A DNA stretch of 64,000 nucleotides from a plasmid. The stretch is taken from the sequence record NZ_LR134454.1, one strand, 5' to 3'. The notes under the pieces are model-generated. The model saw only the letters and a program-made list of their open reading frames with translations. It ran no database searches and was not told where the DNA came from. Shown here piece after piece: positions 3,471 to 9,915 of this stretch (positions are counted from its first letter, which is position 1; every line of letters begins with the position of its first letter). Position numbers and translations under genes: made by a program.

Positions 3471-4172
3471 TCACGCGGGATCGCGGTTCGCGGAACCCTT
3501 CTCCACCACGCGCTCCGCGATCGTCGCCAGAGGAACGTTGCTGTCGCTGGATACCCGGGCCAGCAGTTCGAAGGCACGCACCGCATCGACGTCGAACCGC
3601 TCCATGAGCATTCCCTTGGCCTGACCGATGACGTCACGGCTGGCCAGGGCGGAGCGGAACTGCAACGCACGGTCGTTGGCGATGAGGGCGGTCGCGGCCT
3701 GCGTCGCCAGCATCCCACCGACGGTCTCCGACTCATCGCTGAACGCGTCGACCTTCTCCGAGAACAGGTTCAACGCACCGACCCGGGAATCGAAGGTGAA
3801 CAACCGGAAGGACAGCATGCTGACGATCCCCGCTTCCACTGCGGCGGGGGCGAACTCGGGCCAGCGCTCGTCGGCCCGAAGATCGGGTGCGCGGGTCGCG
3901 GGGTTGGTGGTCGCCGCGTCCCAGCAGGGCCCCTGCTGGAACCGGTGTTGCAGCGCGTCGAGCCTCTCCGTCAGTTCCGACGTGGGTGCGAGGGAGCCGT
4001 ACTTCTCCGGTCCTTCGATGATCAGGATCGAGGCGCCCGCCACATCGGGGATCAGCTGGACGCACGCCGATGTGACGCTCTCGAGTGTGCTGTCGAGAGA
4101 ACTGGTCTGCGCGATGTTGCGGGACATCTCCGCCATCGTCGACAGGAGGCTTTCGAACCCCTCGTCAGTCAC
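3471..4172 (-). CDS. GAF-ANTAR RNA-binding antitermination-type regulator.
   Basis: N-terminal GAF-like region, then the C-terminal ANTAR signature VIGQAKGMLMERFDVDAVRAFELLARVSSDSNVPLATIAERVV. GTG start with GGAGGA 8 nt upstream, and a 4-nt GTGA overlap with the aspA stop. Confidence 0.75.
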   Translation of the reverse strand: MTDEGFESLLSTMAEMSRNIAQTSSLDSTLESVTSACVQLIPDVAGASILIIEGPEKYGSLAPTSELTERLDALQHRFQQGPCWDAATTNPATRAPDLRADERWPEFAPAAVEAGIVSMLSFRLFTFDSRVGALNLFSEKVDAFSDESETVGGMLATQAATALIANDRALQFRSALASRDVIGQAKGMLMERFDVDAVRAFELLARVSSDSNVPLATIAERVVEKGSANRDPA

Positions 4173-5734
4173 TGTGCTCGTCCTCCGGTGCCGGCGGTGG
4201 TCGGTCTACCGCGAGAAAGTAGCACGGTCGCCCGGACTCTCCTCGCAGCCGACGAGGCCCGGGCAGGGCAGGGCTGTCTAGTCGCCGGGTCCCCCGCCGG
4301 AGCGTCGTCGGGACGGGGCTGCAGGGCGTGGGGCGGGTGGCCGGTGAGGTACTCGGGGCTGAGGAGCGACGCGAGGGTCGCCTCATCGAGGAGGGCCCGT
4401 TCGCGCACGATCTCGACGACCCCGCGCCCGGACTCGAGCGCCTCGGCGGCGACCGAGGTCGCGGCGGCGTAGCCGATGGTGGGGCTCAGTGCGGTGACGA
4501 CGCCGATGGACTCGCTCACCATCTGCTCCAACCGCTCCCGGTTCGCCGTGATCCCGGAGACGCAGCGCTCCCCGAGCACGCGGGCGCCGCGCGTGAGGTG
4601 CGCGATCGACTCGACCAGCGAGCGGGCGATGATCGGCTCGAAGGCGTTGAGCTGCAACTGCCCGCCCTCGGCGGCCATGGTGATGGTGACGTCGTGGCCG
4701 ATCACCTCGTAGGCGATCTGGTTCACCACCTCGGGGATGACGGGGTTGACCTTGCCCGGCATGATCGACGACCCGGCCTGCACCGCGGGCAGGTGGATCT
4801 CCGCGAGGCCGGCGCGCGGGCCGGACGACAGCAGCCGCAGGTCGTTGCAGGTCTTCGACAACTTCACCGCGATCCGCTTGAGCACGCCGGAGAGCTGGAC
4901 GAAGACGCCGACGTCGGCGGTCGCCTCGATGAGGTCGGTGGCGCCGACCAGTTCGTGAATGCCCGTGACCTCGCGCAGTTGCTCGATGACCTTGCGGCGG
5001 TAACCGGGGTGGGCGTTGAGGGCGGTGCCGATCGCGGTGCCGCCGATGTTGAGCTCGTGCAGCAGCCGAGTGGCCTCCTGCAGCCGCACGATGTCCTCGC
5101 CCAGCGTGGTGGCGAACGCGCCGAACTCCTGGCCGAGCGTCATCGGCACCGCGTCCTGGAGCTGGGTGCGGCCCATCTTGAGGATGCCCGCGAACTCGTC
5201 CGACTTCGCGGCGAAGGTGCCGCGCAGTTCCGTGAGCGCCTCGGCCAGCTCGGCGAGCTGGGTGATGAGGGCGATCTTGATCGCGGTCGGGTAGACGTCG
5301 TTGGTGCTCTGCCCCAGGTTCACGTGGTCGAGCGGGTGCAGCGCGGCGTAGTCGCCCTTCGGCCGGTCCAGGTGCTCCAGCGCGGCGTTCGCGATCACCT
5401 CGTTGGCGTTCATGTTCGTCGACGTGCCCGCGCCGCCCGCGATGGTGTCGACGACGAACCACTCGTGCAGCCCGCCGCCGCGGATCCGCTCGCACGCCGC
5501 GACGATCGCCGCGGACCGCTCCTCGTCGAGCAGGCCAAGCTGTCGATTGGCCGACGCCGCGGCCTGTTTCACTGCGGCCAGCGCGTGCACCAGGTGGGTG
5601 TGGATGGCGATGGGAACGCCGGTGATCGGGAAGTTCAGCAGCGCCCGGGCGGTGTGGGCGCCGTAGTAGGCGTCGGCGGGGACGTCGATGTCGCCGAGCA
5701 GGTCGTGCTCGCTGCGCGTCTGCGGAGAGGTCAT
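4169..5734 (-). CDS. aspA: Aspartate ammonia-lyase (aspartase).
   Basis: The N-terminus HDLLGDIDVPADAYYGAHTARALLNF is aspartase-type rather than fumarase-C-type. Class II lyase signature GSSIMPGKVNP plus TNDVYPTA and QLQDAVPMTLGQEF. GGAGGG RBS before the ATG at 5734. The Pro/Arg-rich C-terminal ~50 aa is atypical, so the true stop may lie earlier. Confidence 0.85.
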   Translation of the reverse strand: MTSPQTRSEHDLLGDIDVPADAYYGAHTARALLNFPITGVPIAIHTHLVHALAAVKQAAASANRQLGLLDEERSAAIVAACERIRGGGLHEWFVVDTIAGGAGTSTNMNANEVIANAALEHLDRPKGDYAALHPLDHVNLGQSTNDVYPTAIKIALITQLAELAEALTELRGTFAAKSDEFAGILKMGRTQLQDAVPMTLGQEFGAFATTLGEDIVRLQEATRLLHELNIGGTAIGTALNAHPGYRRKVIEQLREVTGIHELVGATDLIEATADVGVFVQLSGVLKRIAVKLSKTCNDLRLLSSGPRAGLAEIHLPAVQAGSSIMPGKVNPVIPEVVNQIAYEVIGHDVTITMAAEGGQLQLNAFEPIIARSLVESIAHLTRGARVLGERCVSGITANRERLEQMVSESIGVVTALSPTIGYAAATSVAAEALESGRGVVEIVRERALLDEATLASLLSPEYLTGHPPHALQPRPDDAPAGDPATRQPCPARASSAARRVRATVLLSRGRPTTAGTGGRAQ

Positions 5735-5781
5735 CCGCTCATCCTTCCGCACCACCCTCCTCCGTCGGAGGATTTGCGGAA

Positions 5782-6087
5782 TCAGCCTGTGCGACCGGCC
5801 CGCCCGCTGTGCGGTTCCGCGGTGACCGGGACACCCGCGGTGGCGAAGACGTCCAGCACCTCGGAGTAGAGCTTCGCGCCGAGCGCGGTGCGGACCTCGT
5901 CGGCGTGCGTGAGGCGGAAGCCGAAGGGCTCGTCCTCCGGGGTGCCGAAGCCGCCGCGCAGGCAGTCGACGAGGGCGTCGAGGTTGCTGCCGAAGTAGCC
6001 GTCGGGGCCGTTCACCGCGCGCCCGAGCTCGGTGTAGAAGTCGGCCGCCCCGGTCACCCGGCTGCCGTCCACGGTGTAGGTCTTCAC
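5782..6087 (-). CDS. Barstar-like ribonuclease inhibitor (immunity protein for the adjacent RNase).
   Basis: YFGSNLDALVDCLRGG matches the barstar core YYGENLDALWDCLTG. The gene is 101 aa and sits immediately downstream of, and co-oriented with, the RNase gene (4-nt gap). Confidence 0.65.
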   Translation of the reverse strand: MKTYTVDGSRVTGAADFYTELGRAVNGPDGYFGSNLDALVDCLRGGFGTPEDEPFGFRLTHADEVRTALGAKLYSEVLDVFATAGVPVTAEPHSGRAGRTG

Positions 6088-6090
6088 GTC

Positions 6091-6471
6091 TCAGGCTCCC
6101 GTCACGATGCAGAACGAGGCGTAGTGGTCGCCGGTGTAGTACAAGTTCGGCGGGGACGTGAGCGGCGTTCCGCCGGTGACGATCCGGCGTGCGCCGCGGG
6201 TCGACGAGCCGGGCGTCGGCACCGTGTACTCGTGGTAGTACCCCGAGGCCTGCGCGGGCAGGATCCCCTCCCGGTTCTGGAACACGACCCCGTCGTTGCG
6301 CGGGTACGGGAACGGACCGCCCTGATGGATGAGGTCGACGGTGTCGGCCGCCTGCGCGGGCAGGGACGACAACGCGCAGGAGGGCAGGGCGGCGGAGGCG
6401 GGGGAGACGGTCGCGACCGTGACGCCGAGCGCCACGACGACCGATCCCGCGAGGCGGGTTGCGATGCGCAT
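6091..6471 (-). CDS. Secreted guanyl-specific ribonuclease of the RNase Sa / microbial N1-T1 family.
   Basis: Signal peptide MRIATRLAGSVVVALGVTVATVSPASA. The mature region DTVDLIHQGGPFPYPRNDGVVFQNREGILP...GYYHEYTVPTPGSSTRGARRIV...YYTGDHYASF aligns almost residue-for-residue with Streptomyces RNase Sa, including the catalytic E and R/H residues. Confidence 0.9.
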   Translation of the reverse strand: MRIATRLAGSVVVALGVTVATVSPASAALPSCALSSLPAQAADTVDLIHQGGPFPYPRNDGVVFQNREGILPAQASGYYHEYTVPTPGSSTRGARRIVTGGTPLTSPPNLYYTGDHYASFCIVTGA

Positions 6472-6587
6472 GATCAGAAGTTAGCCGAAGTAGATGATCG
6501 CCGGGTGGCAGCGCGGTGAACGTCCTGGACCGGCTGCGCCGATGGGTCGCCGGGCGCCGGACCCGGCGATGGCCGGCGCCAGGTGGG

Positions 6588-6848
6588 GGACTCGGCTTCC
6601 GGTGGGGGGTGCCGGCGGCGGATGAGGGGCGTGGCGGCGTTTCCTGGGGGACTGAACGCTGGGTGGGGGAGGAGCCGGCTTCTGGTGGGGGATTCGGCGC
6701 CGCGTGGGGGACGTTCGCTCCCCCGCTCCACGACCGGCGTCCCGTGGGGGCGGGAACGCAGGGTGGGGGAGACGGCGATCGTTGGGGGACTGAACGTGTG
6801 GTGGGGGGGAGACGGCGATCGGCGGGGAACTGAGCGTGTGGTGGGGGT
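6588..6848. repeat. G-tract repeat array on the + strand (C-rich on the strand that would form the RNase 5' leader): at least 12 copies of (T)GGTGGGGG(A), including a ~39-bp unit duplicated in tandem at 6763-6800 and 6801-6840.
   Basis: Repeated motifs, read directly from the sequence, include ...caggtggggga...ggtggggggt...cctgggggactgaacgctgggtggggga...ctggtggggga...gcgtggggga...gggtgggggagacggcgatcgttgggggactgaacgtgtggtgggggggagacggcgatcggcggggaactgagcgtgtggtggggg. The array occupies the 390-bp intergenic gap between the TetR stop (6862) and the RNase start (6471). Confidence 0.7.
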
Positions 6849-6861
6849 AGCGCGTCCGGGG

Positions 6862-7521
6862 CTACCTCTCGCGGGGGGTGTACGACGCCAGGCCCAGGGC
6901 GACGACGGTGAGCTGGCGGGTGGTGCGCTCGATGAGCTCCGCCTCGTCGCGGGTGTTGCGGGCGTCGATGCGCACCAGCTCGGCGACGAAGCCCAGCATG
7001 ATCGTGACGTAGAGGTCGGCGGTCATGTCGAGGTCCTCGACGCTCCACTCGCTCAGCGCGGGGATCCGCGAGAGGTCGTGGGTGAGCTCCTTGGCGAAGA
7101 GTCGCAGCTCGACGTCGATCGCGCGTTGCAGTTCGGGGGAGCCGCCGTAGCGCTCGCGCACGAGGAACTGGAACTCGGCGTCGTTGGCGCGGGCCTGCTT
7201 GGCGACGACGCGGATCGCCTCCGCGCCGCTCGGCGCCACGCCCTCGCGCCGGCCCTCGCGCAGCATGCGGCGCAGCACGCGCATCGCGTCCTCGACCAGG
7301 GTGACGCCGAGGTCGTCCATCGATGCGAAGTGGCGGTAGAAGGCGGTGGGCACCACGCCGGCCGCCTTGGCGACCTCGCGCAGCGACAGGCTCGCGAACG
7401 AGCGTTCACCGGCCAGGGCCAGCGCCTCGTCGAGCAGGGTCTGTCGCGTGCGCTCCTTGGCCTCCGCCCGCGACGGTCCCGGGGTGTGCCGTTCGACGGC
7501 GCGCGGGGACGGTCTGGGCAT
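6862..7521 (-). CDS. TetR-family transcriptional regulator, divergent from the desaturase operon.
   Basis: HTH region TRQTLLDEALALAGERSFASLSLREVAKAAGVVPTAFYRHFASMDDL. The gene is divergently arranged with the reductase-desaturase pair, as TetR regulators of DesA3 operons are in mycobacteria. Confidence 0.8.
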   Translation of the reverse strand: MPRPSPRAVERHTPGPSRAEAKERTRQTLLDEALALAGERSFASLSLREVAKAAGVVPTAFYRHFASMDDLGVTLVEDAMRVLRRMLREGRREGVAPSGAEAIRVVAKQARANDAEFQFLVRERYGGSPELQRAIDVELRLFAKELTHDLSRIPALSEWSVEDLDMTADLYVTIMLGFVAELVRIDARNTRDEAELIERTTRQLTVVALGLASYTPRER

Positions 7522-7662
7522 GGGGTCGAGTCTATCGCCCCTGCGTCGGGGCGGTGTCGCGGAGGTTGTGGCCGAGGTCACGGAACAACTCCTTGACGAG
7601 GAGCGGACGGCTGCGTGCATACTGTGAGTGTACAAGCGTGCACTGAACGGAGAAACACAGCC

Positions 7663-8715
7663 ATGAGCCGCTTCACTCGATTCGCCGGATCCGTCGTCGA
7701 GGCCGTGCTGACGCCTCACGCCGTCGACCGCTACCTCGAACTCGTCGATCCGATGGTCACGTGGACCGACATCCGCGGACGCGTCACCGCCGTGAGCCGC
7801 CGCACCGACCGGTCGGTGACGTTCACCGTGACGCCCACCCGCCAGTTCGAGGGCTTCGAGGCGGGCCAGTTCATCCAGGTCAGCGTCGTGATCGACGGTG
7901 TCCGTCAGTCGCGCTGCTTCTCGCCCGCCGGCTCGCAGCATCAGGGCGGCGAGCTCGAGTTCACCGTGACCGCGGACGCTGACGGCCACGTCAGCAAGCA
8001 TCTCCGCGACAATCTCGCCGTCGGCGACGTGCTGGGACTCACCCCGGCCGCCGGCACCTTCACCCTGCCCGGGACGCCGGGGAACCGCCCCGAGCGGATC
8101 CGCCTCATCAGTGGTGGCAGCGGCGTCACACCCGTACTCTCGATCGTGCGCACGCTCGTCGACGAGAACCACGACGGTCCGATCGACGTCCTGCACTTCT
8201 GCCGCGACGCGGCCGATAACCCGTACCGCGCGGAGCTCGAGCGCCTCGCCCGCCTGCGGAACGTCTCCGTCACCTACGTGTACACCCGCGCCGGCGGCCG
8301 CCACCTCGGCCCGGAGCACCTCGAGGACTTCGGCGACATCGGCTTCGCGTGCGGCCCCGCCCCGCTGCTCGAGACCGCGAAACAGCTGTACTCCGACGCC
8401 GGCGTCGAGCTCCGCGTCGAGGAGTTCACCCCGCCCGTGGCGGCGGCACCGTCGGGCGAGGCGACCGGCACCCTGCGCTTCACCGAGGCCGGCACCGCGG
8501 TCGACAACGACGGCCGCAGCATCCTCGATCAGGCCGAGTCCTCCGGCCTGTTCCCCGAGAGCGGCTGCCGCATGGGCATCTGCTTCTCCTGCACCGCCGT
8601 CCGCAAGACCGGCTGCACCACCAACATCCTCACGGGCGAGACCGACGACGAGCCCGATCAGCACATCCAGCTCTGCATCAGCGCGCCCGTCGGCGACGTC
8701 GAGATCGCGCTGTAG
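7663..8715 (+). CDS. Ferredoxin-NAD(P) reductase-type oxidoreductase (FAD/NAD-binding plus C-terminal 2Fe-2S ferredoxin domain), electron partner of the desaturase (Rv3230c-like).
   Basis: Flavin-binding RCFSPAG, GGSGVTP and a C-terminal CxxxxCxxC...C cluster (SGCRMGICFSCTAV...LC). GGAG RBS before the ATG at 7663. Lies directly upstream of the desaturase. Confidence 0.8.
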   Translation: MSRFTRFAGSVVEAVLTPHAVDRYLELVDPMVTWTDIRGRVTAVSRRTDRSVTFTVTPTRQFEGFEAGQFIQVSVVIDGVRQSRCFSPAGSQHQGGELEFTVTADADGHVSKHLRDNLAVGDVLGLTPAAGTFTLPGTPGNRPERIRLISGGSGVTPVLSIVRTLVDENHDGPIDVLHFCRDAADNPYRAELERLARLRNVSVTYVYTRAGGRHLGPEHLEDFGDIGFACGPAPLLETAKQLYSDAGVELRVEEFTPPVAAAPSGEATGTLRFTEAGTAVDNDGRSILDQAESSGLFPESGCRMGICFSCTAVRKTGCTTNILTGETDDEPDQHIQLCISAPVGDVEIAL

Positions 8716-8742
8716 CCCACCATCTTCGTAGGGGAGTCCATC

Positions 8743-9915
8743 ATGACCGAGCACATCACCCTCACCGCCGAGCAGGTCGAGATCATCGGCGAACGCTTCG
8801 ACGCCATCCGCACCCGCGTCCTGAACGACCTGGGCGCCAAGGACCGCGAGTACATCTACAAGATCGTGCGGGCGCAGCGCGGCTTCGAGATCGCCGGGCG
8901 CGCCATGATGTACCTGCCGCCGCTGTGGCCCGTGGCCGTCGGCTCCCTCGGCGTGTCGAAGATCCTCGACAACATGGAGATCGGCCACAACGTGATGCAC
9001 GGTCAGTACGACTGGATGCGTGAGCCGGGCCTGAACTCCCGCGAGTTCGAGTGGGACACCGTGTGCCCCGCCGACCAGTGGAAGCACAGCCACAACTACC
9101 TGCACCACACGTTCACCAACGTCCTCGACATGGACCGCGACATCGGCTACGGCATCCTGCGCATGGCGCCGGAGCAGAAGTGGAACCCCTACTACCTGGG
9201 CAACCTCGCCTACGCGGGCGCGCTCATGGTGCTCTTCCAGTGGGGCGTCATGCTGCACGACCTCGAGGCCGAGCGGATCGTCAAGGGCGAGCGCAAGTGG
9301 GGCGACATCAAGGAGCTCGTCGCCGGCATGCGGAAGAAGGCCGGCAAGCAGGTGCTCAAGGACTACGTCATCTTCCCGGCGCTCACCGGCCCGCTGTTCC
9401 CGCTGACCTTCCTGGGCAACATGTCCGCGAACCTCATCCGCAACCTGTGGACGTTCTCCATCATCTTCTGCGGCCACTTCCCCTCGGGCGTGCAGACCTT
9501 CACCAAGGAGGAGACCGCCGACGAGACCCGCGGCGAGTGGTACGTCCGGCAGATGCTGGGCTCCGCGAACATCGACGGTGGCCGCCTGTTCCACATCATG
9601 AGCGGCAACCTGAGCTTCCAGATCGAGCACCACCTGTTCCCCGACATCCCCGCCAACCGTTACCCGGAGATCGCCGCCGAGGTCCGCGCGACGTGCGAGG
9701 AGTTCGGGCTGCCCTACAACACCGGCTCGCTGCGGGGCCAGCTCGGCTCGACGTGGAAGAAGATCGCCAAGCTCTCGCTGCCGAACCGGTGGACCAAGCA
9801 GGAGCCCGAGCTCGCCGTGACGATCGAGCGCGCCCGGCACGAGGAGGCCGCGTCGAAGGCCCTCGCCAAGGCGGGCTGGCAGCGCGCCGTCGAGCGTGAG
9901 ATGGTGTCGGTCTAG
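8743..9915 (+). CDS. desA3: Membrane-bound acyl-CoA (stearoyl-CoA delta-9 type) fatty-acid desaturase, DesA3-like.
   Basis: Three di-iron histidine boxes HNVMHGQ, HNYLHH and QIEHHLFP. The protein is globally similar to M. tuberculosis DesA3 (Rv3229c). Confidence 0.8.
   Translation: MTEHITLTAEQVEIIGERFDAIRTRVLNDLGAKDREYIYKIVRAQRGFEIAGRAMMYLPPLWPVAVGSLGVSKILDNMEIGHNVMHGQYDWMREPGLNSREFEWDTVCPADQWKHSHNYLHHTFTNVLDMDRDIGYGILRMAPEQKWNPYYLGNLAYAGALMVLFQWGVMLHDLEAERIVKGERKWGDIKELVAGMRKKAGKQVLKDYVIFPALTGPLFPLTFLGNMSANLIRNLWTFSIIFCGHFPSGVQTFTKEETADETRGEWYVRQMLGSANIDGGRLFHIMSGNLSFQIEHHLFPDIPANRYPEIAAEVRATCEEFGLPYNTGSLRGQLGSTWKKIAKLSLPNRWTKQEPELAVTIERARHEEAASKALAKAGWQRAVEREMVSV

Follow-up and report, generated by a model that had tools for sequence, protein, structure and literature searches.

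A predicted exported RNase Sa-family ribonuclease and its adjacent barstar-family inhibitor in Tsukamurella tyrosinosolvens

The stretch of DNA analysed here comprises 64,000 nucleotides (nt) of the plasmid sequence record NZ_LR134454.1 (the window), and two small neighbouring genes on its minus strand very probably constitute a classical exported guanyl-specific ribonuclease (RNase) with a cytoplasmic barstar-type inhibitor, native to Tsukamurella tyrosinosolvens. The proposal is carried by the family membership of both proteins, by their conserved catalytic and binding residues and predicted folds, by the adjacency of the two genes and by the conservation of the cassette. An earlier note, made from the sequence alone, had described two open reading frames (ORFs) at this place, and both are present on the minus strand. 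The coding features are these, with lengths in amino acids (aa):

6091..6471, minus strand: RNase gene, ATG start, 126 aa, stop codon included; predicted exported guanyl-specific RNase of the RNase Sa / N1-T1 family

6391..6471, minus strand: coding region of the predicted Sec signal peptide (signal peptidase I, SPase I), residues 1-27, reading MRIATR / LAGSVVVALGVTVATV / SPASA

5782..6087, minus strand: inhibitor gene, GTG start, 101 aa, stop codon included; barstar family, without a signal peptide

The assignment of the first protein to the RNase Sa family, already made in the earlier note, is borne out by profile, sequence and fold alike. The Pfam profile PF00545 (Ribonuclease) matches the 126-aa protein at 90.5 bits (E=1.1e-25, profile positions 11-95 of 98), where the curated cut-off is 24 bits, and matches among PDB sequences extend over the whole mature domain of RNase Sa3 (1mgr, E=1e-33), RNase Sa (1ay7, E=5e-31) and RNase Sa2 (E=7e-26), with identities in that domain of ~56-64%, the highest (64%) being to RNase Sa3. 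Alignment places E81, R92, R96 and H116 on Glu54, Arg65, Arg69 and His85 of RNase Sa, a catalytic set that is kept in 198 of 199 aligned relatives, and the guanine-recognition loop F64-Q65-N66-R67-E68 (FQNRE) is the same as Phe37-Glu41 of RNase Sa. An AlphaFold model built from 55 homologues reaches a predicted local distance difference test (pLDDT) score of ~94-98 over residues 31-126, and in Foldseek it superimposes on RNases Sa, Sa2 and Sa3 with template modelling (TM) scores of 0.87-0.91 and a root-mean-square deviation (rmsd) of 1.0-1.6 A, the alpha+beta fold of the microbial RNases. Neither this protein nor the inhibitor was matched in the NCBIfam library.

Export of the RNase is predicted from its first 27 residues, which read as the Sec signal peptide that had been noted before: a positive N-region, a 16-residue hydrophobic core (Kyte-Doolittle maximum 2.57) and an AxA motif, with cleavage expected directly after ASA, before a further A. 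Residues 1-16 are disordered in the AlphaFold model (pLDDT <50), and the predicted end of the signal peptide coincides in the alignment with the mature N-terminus of RNase Sa. The protein consists of this signal peptide and a 99-residue RNase domain and nothing else, and the signal-peptide features occur on the RNase only, with none on the inhibitor. An export signal, of either SPase I type or lipobox type, was present in all RNase orthologues examined; AxA sites were found in those of Tsukamurella, Williamsia and Gordonia effusa, and a lipobox (LIGC, VVGC, LVAC) in those of Mycobacteriaceae, which are probably lipoproteins. The RNase differs by 1-2 residues between the T. tyrosinosolvens strains compared. 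As a separate observation, residue 110 (window 6142-6144), which lies in a subtype-specific loop, is Leu in the window strain and Trp in the other T. tyrosinosolvens sequences (4 of 4) and in T. pulmonis, and the position varies further among genera (Y, V, M).

The downstream product had been described as a barstar-like protein of 101 aa with the motif NLDALVDCLRG, and that description holds. PF01337 (Barstar) matches it at 57 bits (E=2e-15; curated Pfam cut-off 23.4 bits). Sequence comparison with Bacillus barstar gives a weak direct match (E ~1e-3, confined to the first 50 residues), and a profile of 71 homologues compared by hhalign with barstar of B. amyloliquefaciens aligns over residues 1-84 with a probability of 97.2%. 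In that comparison the motif, residues 35-45, corresponds to barstar NLDALWDCLTG, and Y31, D37 and D41 correspond to barstar Tyr29, Asp35 and Asp39 (the last two forming the DxxxD of helix 2), all three being invariant among the 71 homologues. The barstar fold is an alpha/beta fold of three parallel strands and four helices; the AlphaFold model of the inhibitor (pLDDT 89) contains the elements E2-7, H14-26, H36-43, E55-60, H62-69, H71-84 and E88-90, and its best 24 PDB matches in Foldseek are all barstar chains (TM 0.78, rmsd 2.7 A). Residues 88-101 form a non-conserved, low-confidence tail (pLDDT <50 at 96-101) that lacks a counterpart in other Tsukamurella species. The interface with the RNase can be placed provisionally from the conserved residues.

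The two ORFs share a frame, the RNase stop being followed by a single codon (3 nt) and then by the inhibitor GTG, and a candidate ribosome-binding element lies within the end of the RNase gene:

6096..6100, minus strand: GGGAG, resembling a Shine-Dalgarno sequence and lying 8 nt before the inhibitor GTG, still within the RNase gene

The position of GGGAG close to the GTG suggests translational coupling, and the inhibitor is probably co-transcribed with the RNase. At the corresponding junctions of Mycolicibacterium smegmatis and Mycobacteroides abscessus, GGAGG or GAAGG precedes ATGA/GTGA and the genes overlap by 4 nt. The GC content at third codon positions (GC3) is 0.94 for the RNase gene and 0.95 for the inhibitor gene, 0.955 for the adjoining TetR gene and 0.91 for the reductase gene, in a window of 72.7% GC, so that the cassette resembles its neighbours, as is consistent with real, native coding sequence. 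An origin on a horizontal island was considered and rejected on account of this native GC3 and of genus-wide synteny.

The conservation of the cassette extends well beyond the window. At the nucleotide level the region matches T. tyrosinosolvens genomes (e.g., CP019066.1) with 98.4-99.9% identity, and in T. paurometabola, T. pulmonis and T. tyrosinosolvens the order is always desaturase-reductase, TetR, RNase, barstar and aspartase-class lyase. Outside Tsukamurella the adjacent pair was found in Williamsia maris, W. herbipolensis and Gordonia effusa, and also in M. smegmatis, M. wolinskyi, M. abscessus, Smaragdicoccus niigatensis and several Mycobacterium metagenome-assembled genomes, so that at least six genera of Mycobacteriales, Tsukamurella included, have it, with flanking genes that differ by genus; the homologue lists of both proteins name many further species of Mycobacteriales. 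The view that such a pairing is uncommon among mycolic-acid actinobacteria is thus not supported, the adjacent pair being spread across many mycolata. Simple pairs of the barnase-barstar kind have elsewhere been called widely distributed (PMC3482391). Recognition of the pair is likewise not new, as NCBI names are already present: a protein 99% identical to the inhibitor is called "barstar family protein [Tsukamurella tyrosinosolvens]", and Tsukamurella RNase orthologues (up to 94% identical) are called "ribonuclease" or "ribonuclease domain-containing protein". No experimental study of a barstar or a guanyl-specific RNase in mycobacteria was found in the literature library that was searched.

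The RNase family as a whole is very large, with at least 7,793 matches at E<=1e-3 and at least 598 loci in the genome scan. No Tsukamurella locus was among the genome-scan matches listed, and Tsukamurella loci were added by exact protein look-up. With a home-made barstar hidden Markov model (HMM), an adjacent inhibitor was detected in 31 of 80 genome-scan loci, or 35 of 84 once four looked-up loci were added; this is an undercount, because at least one downstream ORF that the model missed (in L010) is barstar-like by eye. At several Streptomyces loci the gene downstream of the RNase is clearly unrelated to barstar. A further arrangement was seen in other actinobacteria, where eight loci (L006, L008, L018, L020, L025, L027, L028 and L036) and protein P0001 encode secreted proteins with two tandem RNase Sa-type domains. 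The second domain has lost catalytic residues in L006, L018 and L025, with YYHEYTV replaced by YYHLYTV or YYKLFAV and DHY by DNF or DRY; in P0001 the catalytic Glu of the second domain has become Val and the His is kept; and the other five loci are known only as two-domain HMM matches. A barstar gene lay within 4 kb at 0 of 8 two-domain loci versus 35 of 76 single-domain loci, as counted with a barstar HMM of limited sensitivity. A dead second RNase domain might take the place of inhibitor function or be connected with it.

An alignment of 199 RNase relatives resolves three types, which are sharply separated, with exceptions in 3 of 199:

Type of this RNase: Cys32 and Cys121, loop of 7-8 residues (TPLTSPPN), 128 of 199

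RNase Sa / Sa3 type: Cys one position later together with a C-terminal Cys, loop of 4 residues, 40 of 199

Cysteine-free type: no Cys, loop of 3 residues, 28 of 199

It is here that the alignment to RNase Sa, said in the earlier note to run residue by residue, must be qualified: it holds for the catalytic residues and spans the whole mature domain, but there is a 4-residue insertion (GGTPLTSPP versus GEATQED; loop TPLTSPPN versus ATQE) and both cysteines are shifted. The positions of Cys32 and Cys121 in the alignment are those of Val6 and Ser90 in RNase Sa and not those of Cys7 and Cys96, so that the Cys7-Cys96 disulfide, a feature of the subfamily, is not kept; the strict co-occurrence of Cys32 and Cys121 points to a relocated disulfide. 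The inhibitors vary in step. Among 36 cognate pairs, the RNases with cysteines are paired only with barstars of a 'GGxGTP' variant (17 of 17) and the cysteine-free RNases only with barstars of the classical 'TDLSW' type ('CLTDLSW'; 19 of 19), the barstar variants having been typed by regular expression, with four rows reassigned by eye. Such co-diversification supports a functional partnership of RNase and barstar. No solved structure of the Cys32/Cys121 RNase subtype or of its inhibitor was found.

How the pair might be expressed can be proposed from the short region upstream of the RNase ATG, by cross-genus comparison, on which the promoter proposal rests. Two elements stand out:

6478..6483, minus strand: TAACTT, candidate -10 hexamer, with 6 nt between it and the RNase ATG

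6500..6521, minus strand: pair of 11-nt direct-repeat units (GTTCACCGCGC and TGCCACCCGGC) with 16 nt between it and the -10 hexamer; candidate operator

A consensus scan of 5500-7700 for sigma-70 promoters found none, TAACTT being passed over because it lacks a -35 box. In T. tyrosinosolvens, T. paurometabola, T. pulmonis, two Williamsia species, M. smegmatis and M. abscessus alike, the ATG is preceded at a distance of 6-7 nt by a TANNNT/NANNNT hexamer, and a hexamer at such spacing is the signature of leaderless actinobacterial mRNAs. No Shine-Dalgarno sequence precedes the RNase ATG, nor is there room for one between it and TAACTT, which together with the position of the hexamer suggests a leaderless mRNA. 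Farther upstream, the architecture KTTCAY-N5-nnCCAY-N5, 16 nt, hexamer, 6/7 nt, ATG is kept in three Tsukamurella species, Williamsia maris and Gordonia effusa. The KTTCAY unit starts at -50/-51 from the ATG at all six non-Mycobacteriaceae loci examined, and the nnCCAY unit is in register at five of these six, being offset by 1 nt in W. herbipolensis. The genes upstream of this conserved footprint differ between genera, and in T. paurometabola the entire intergenic space before the RNase gene consists of these 52 nt.

The repeat units may be a candidate operator for a response regulator of the OmpR/PhoB family, similar to a PHO box or a RegX3 site, although other OmpR-family regulators have similar half-sites. 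In the forward direction the units resemble the PHO-box core, and on the other strand they read GGTGG-N6-GGTGA, like the RegX3 site. The PHO-box core of Streptomyces PhoP is GTTCACC, arranged as 11-nt direct-repeat units (PMC4415409), and the RegX3 site of M. tuberculosis is GGTGC-N5-GGTGA (bioRxiv 10.1101/400960). Among the Bacillus enzymes, phosphate starvation induces both binase and balifase, the latter standing in one operon with a barstar orthologue (PMC5021464). The likeness to PHO-box and RegX3 sites, taken with the induction of binase and balifase, makes phosphate control a reasonable hypothesis.

These data allow a working model of the pair, as a module of the barnase-barstar / RNase Sa-SaI kind, to be put forward. 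The RNase would be a small guanine-specific endoribonuclease with a cyclizing, metal-independent mechanism, carried across the cytoplasmic membrane by its Sec signal peptide, cut between ASA and the following A, and folded outside the cytoplasm, where a Cys32-Cys121 disulfide would probably stabilise it. The inhibitor would be made in the cytoplasm from its own Shine-Dalgarno sequence, translationally coupled to the RNase, and its surface of Tyr31, Asp37 and Asp41 would plug the RNase active site and so shield the producer's RNA from any RNase that folds before export. The pair would have its own promoter, a leaderless mRNA and a direct-repeat operator typical of OmpR/PhoB-type regulators. Its role would most likely be the degradation of extracellular RNA for phosphate/nucleoside acquisition, as in Bacillus binase and balifase, and scavenging of nucleosides or phosphate is plausible.

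The model has close precedents. RNases Sa, Sa2 and Sa3 of Streptomyces aureofaciens (PDB 1rgg, 1py3 and 1mgr) share the catalytic Glu/Arg/Arg/His, the FQNRE loop and, by prediction, the fold and the signal peptide with the present enzyme, whereas its cysteine pair is relocated and its loop is 4 residues longer; RNase Sa itself has been crystallised with barstar (PDB 1ay7). Streptomyces loci with an adjacent inhibitor encode the same 'GGxGTP' barstar variant, although their inhibitors are ~127 aa long, compared with ~90-100 aa for the inhibitor of the present subtype. With barnase-barstar of Bacillus amyloliquefaciens, and with binase, the likeness lies in the combination of an exported guanyl-preferring RNase and a cytoplasmic inhibitor of barstar fold, and in the Tyr29, Asp35, Asp39 and NLDALxDCL helix of barstar, all kept here. 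However, the RNase domain bears only a distant similarity to barnase (TM ~0.45) and the inhibitor is ~23% identical to barstar, from which it departs at several contact residues and by an insertion after helix 2. The balifase-YrdF system of B. licheniformis likewise unites RNase and inhibitor in an operon, and in the present case an operator of phosphate type is suspected; barnase, binase and balifase differ in that the mRNA here is predicted to be leaderless and that no propeptide is apparent.

Several points weigh against this account or limit its reach. RNase activity, like export and inhibition, is an inference. Barstar Trp38, Trp44 and Glu76 are replaced by Val40, Gly46 and Thr83 in the hhalign comparison, and a 4-residue insertion after the binding helix (helix 2) produces the conserved motif CLRGGFGTPED; these replacements and the insertion imply an interface that differs from that of barnase and barstar. 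Glu76, Trp38 and Trp44 add to barnase binding and are not family-defining. The Sec pathway of a mycolic-acid bacterium leads to the cell envelope, and release past the mycomembrane is not assured; orthologues of Mycobacteriaceae, with their lipobox, may stay anchored. The repeat pattern is not significant on the window alone (1 match versus 0.21 expected), M. smegmatis and M. abscessus lack the repeat architecture, and an OmpR/PhoB-family response regulator is only a candidate for the protein that would bind it. Transcription may, finally, be either joined to that of the downstream aspartase-class gene or separate from it.

Other roles for such a pair have to be weighed against extracellular RNA degradation. 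The earlier note had called the RNase a toxin and had raised interbacterial competition, in which the RNase would enter competitors and the barstar-like protein would protect siblings. Barnase-like domains do occur with Imm-barstar in polymorphic toxin systems, simple pairs have been regarded as an incipient toxin-immunity arrangement (PMC3482391), and the present cassette shares with those systems both the family pair and the order of toxin gene followed by immunity gene. Polymorphic toxins differ, however, in their delivery and repeat domains, cassette arrays and strain polymorphism, none of which is seen here. No trafficking domain (WXG/LXG, RHS, filamentous or other) is present in the RNase, which, lacking a delivery domain, offers no support for a contact-dependent toxin role. 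There are no spare toxin or immunity cassettes within several kb, and the 1-2 residue differences among the T. tyrosinosolvens strains compared indicate that the protein is not polymorphic. No route is known, moreover, by which a free 11-kDa RNase enters intact bacterial cells, which counts against competition. A polymorphic toxin was rejected on the lack of trafficking or repeat domains and variable cassettes, and with no specific support for it the competition role is very unlikely.

A cytotoxic or virulence function in an opportunistic pathogen, with the RNase harming host cells, as RNase Sa3 and binase are reported to do, and the inhibitor serving for self-protection only, might be suggested by the PDB title of the closest solved structure, RNase Sa3 (64% identity), 'cytotoxic microbial ribonuclease', by reviews of the cytotoxicity of secreted bacterial N1/T1 RNases (PMC6901985, PMC7604891) and by the presence of homologues in the opportunists T. 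tyrosinosolvens, T. pulmonis and M. abscessus. However, the cassette occurs equally in environmental, non-pathogenic Williamsia, Gordonia, Mycolicibacterium, Kribbella and Streptomyces, and no host-related genes are linked to it; because it is as common in soil saprophytes, virulence has no specific support, and we regard it as very improbable. An intracellular module resembling a type II toxin-antitoxin system or an anti-phage system, in which the RNase would act inside the producer once the inhibitor is lost, has a superficial likeness in its favour: RNase and protein inhibitor are both small and are tightly linked. The export signal of all RNase orthologues, an inhibitor without a DNA-binding domain in Pfam and a toxin gene that comes first speak against it, and neither protein matches PADLOC models; with the RNase export signal and the lack of a PADLOC match, a toxin-antitoxin or defence module was rejected, and its probability is close to negligible. 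An exported RNase with a cytoplasmic inhibitor is accordingly the account that is retained.

The regions flanking the cassette hold further features. Its neighbours encode a TetR regulator, an aspartase-class lyase and an ANTAR/GAF protein. The gap of 47 nt between the inhibitor stop and the aspartase/fumarase-class gene contains one further element:

5745..5782, minus strand: hairpin without a U-tract

The RNA fold of 5800..5725 has an energy of -32.5 kcal/mol, which is marginal at z=-1.96, and the hairpin may act as a weak terminator, or it may mask the Shine-Dalgarno sequence of the next gene. The consensus scan of 5500-7700 found no intrinsic terminator, and an Rfam scan of 4000-9000 at E<=1 returned no RNA family. 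On the other side, the gene of the TetR-family regulator and its divergent partners stand at 6862-7521 (minus strand) and 7615-8715 (plus strand); the partners are a ferredoxin-reductase-like gene (FAD_binding_6/NAD_binding_1) and a fatty-acid desaturase gene. This arrangement, kept in all Tsukamurella species examined, probably constitutes a desaturase regulon of its own that has no connection with the RNase cassette.

The spacer between the TetR stop (6862) and the RNase ATG (6471) carries at 6572-6850 an array of ~11 degenerate units of ~20 nt, with a C5A core on the transcribed strand (TCCCCCACC) that reads GGTGGGGGA on the plus strand. The transcribed strand of the array is 49% C and 24% G, and 9 of the 41 matches to GGTGGGGGA in the window, with one mismatch allowed, lie within its 270 nt. 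Every T. tyrosinosolvens strain examined has the array, whereas T. pulmonis (142-nt spacer) retains remnants of it and T. paurometabola (52-nt spacer) lacks it; the array has no Rfam match in the scan of 4000-9000 at E<=1. Ideas for it include a C-rich Rho-utilisation region after the TetR gene and G-quadruplex-prone DNA. A heptamer tandem repeat, (CAGCGGT/C)n, lies just downstream of the TetR stop at three other T. tyrosinosolvens loci (L085, at 2080-2237; L086; L087), with ~17, 4 and 3 copies in the three genomes, and the segment is missing from the window strain at ~6850. Variation in this segment accounts for a TetR-RNase spacer of 390-550 nt between T. tyrosinosolvens strains.

A more ambitious proposal is that the pair belongs to a distinct RNase Sa/barstar branch widespread in Mycobacteriales, marked by a relocated disulfide, an extended loop, a re-wired 'CLRGGFGTP' interface, a leaderless mRNA and a PHO-box/RegX3-like operator; taken whole, this is speculative and on balance doubtful. 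Were it true, the pair would represent a previously unrecognised phosphate-starvation exoenzyme of mycolata and might have a share in the cytotoxicity of such opportunists as Tsukamurella and M. abscessus. As a textbook module of secreted RNase and inhibitor, already recognised by automated annotation, the cassette has little discovery value, and the additions made here, the definition of a subtype and a promoter hypothesis, are modest. They nonetheless correct the impression that RNase-barstar pairs are rare in mycolic-acid bacteria, point to a large RNase Sa subtype without a solved structure and with a co-varying inhibitor variant, and provide a testable hypothesis, that of a leaderless, phosphate-regulated exo-RNase in a group whose extracellular RNases appear little studied.

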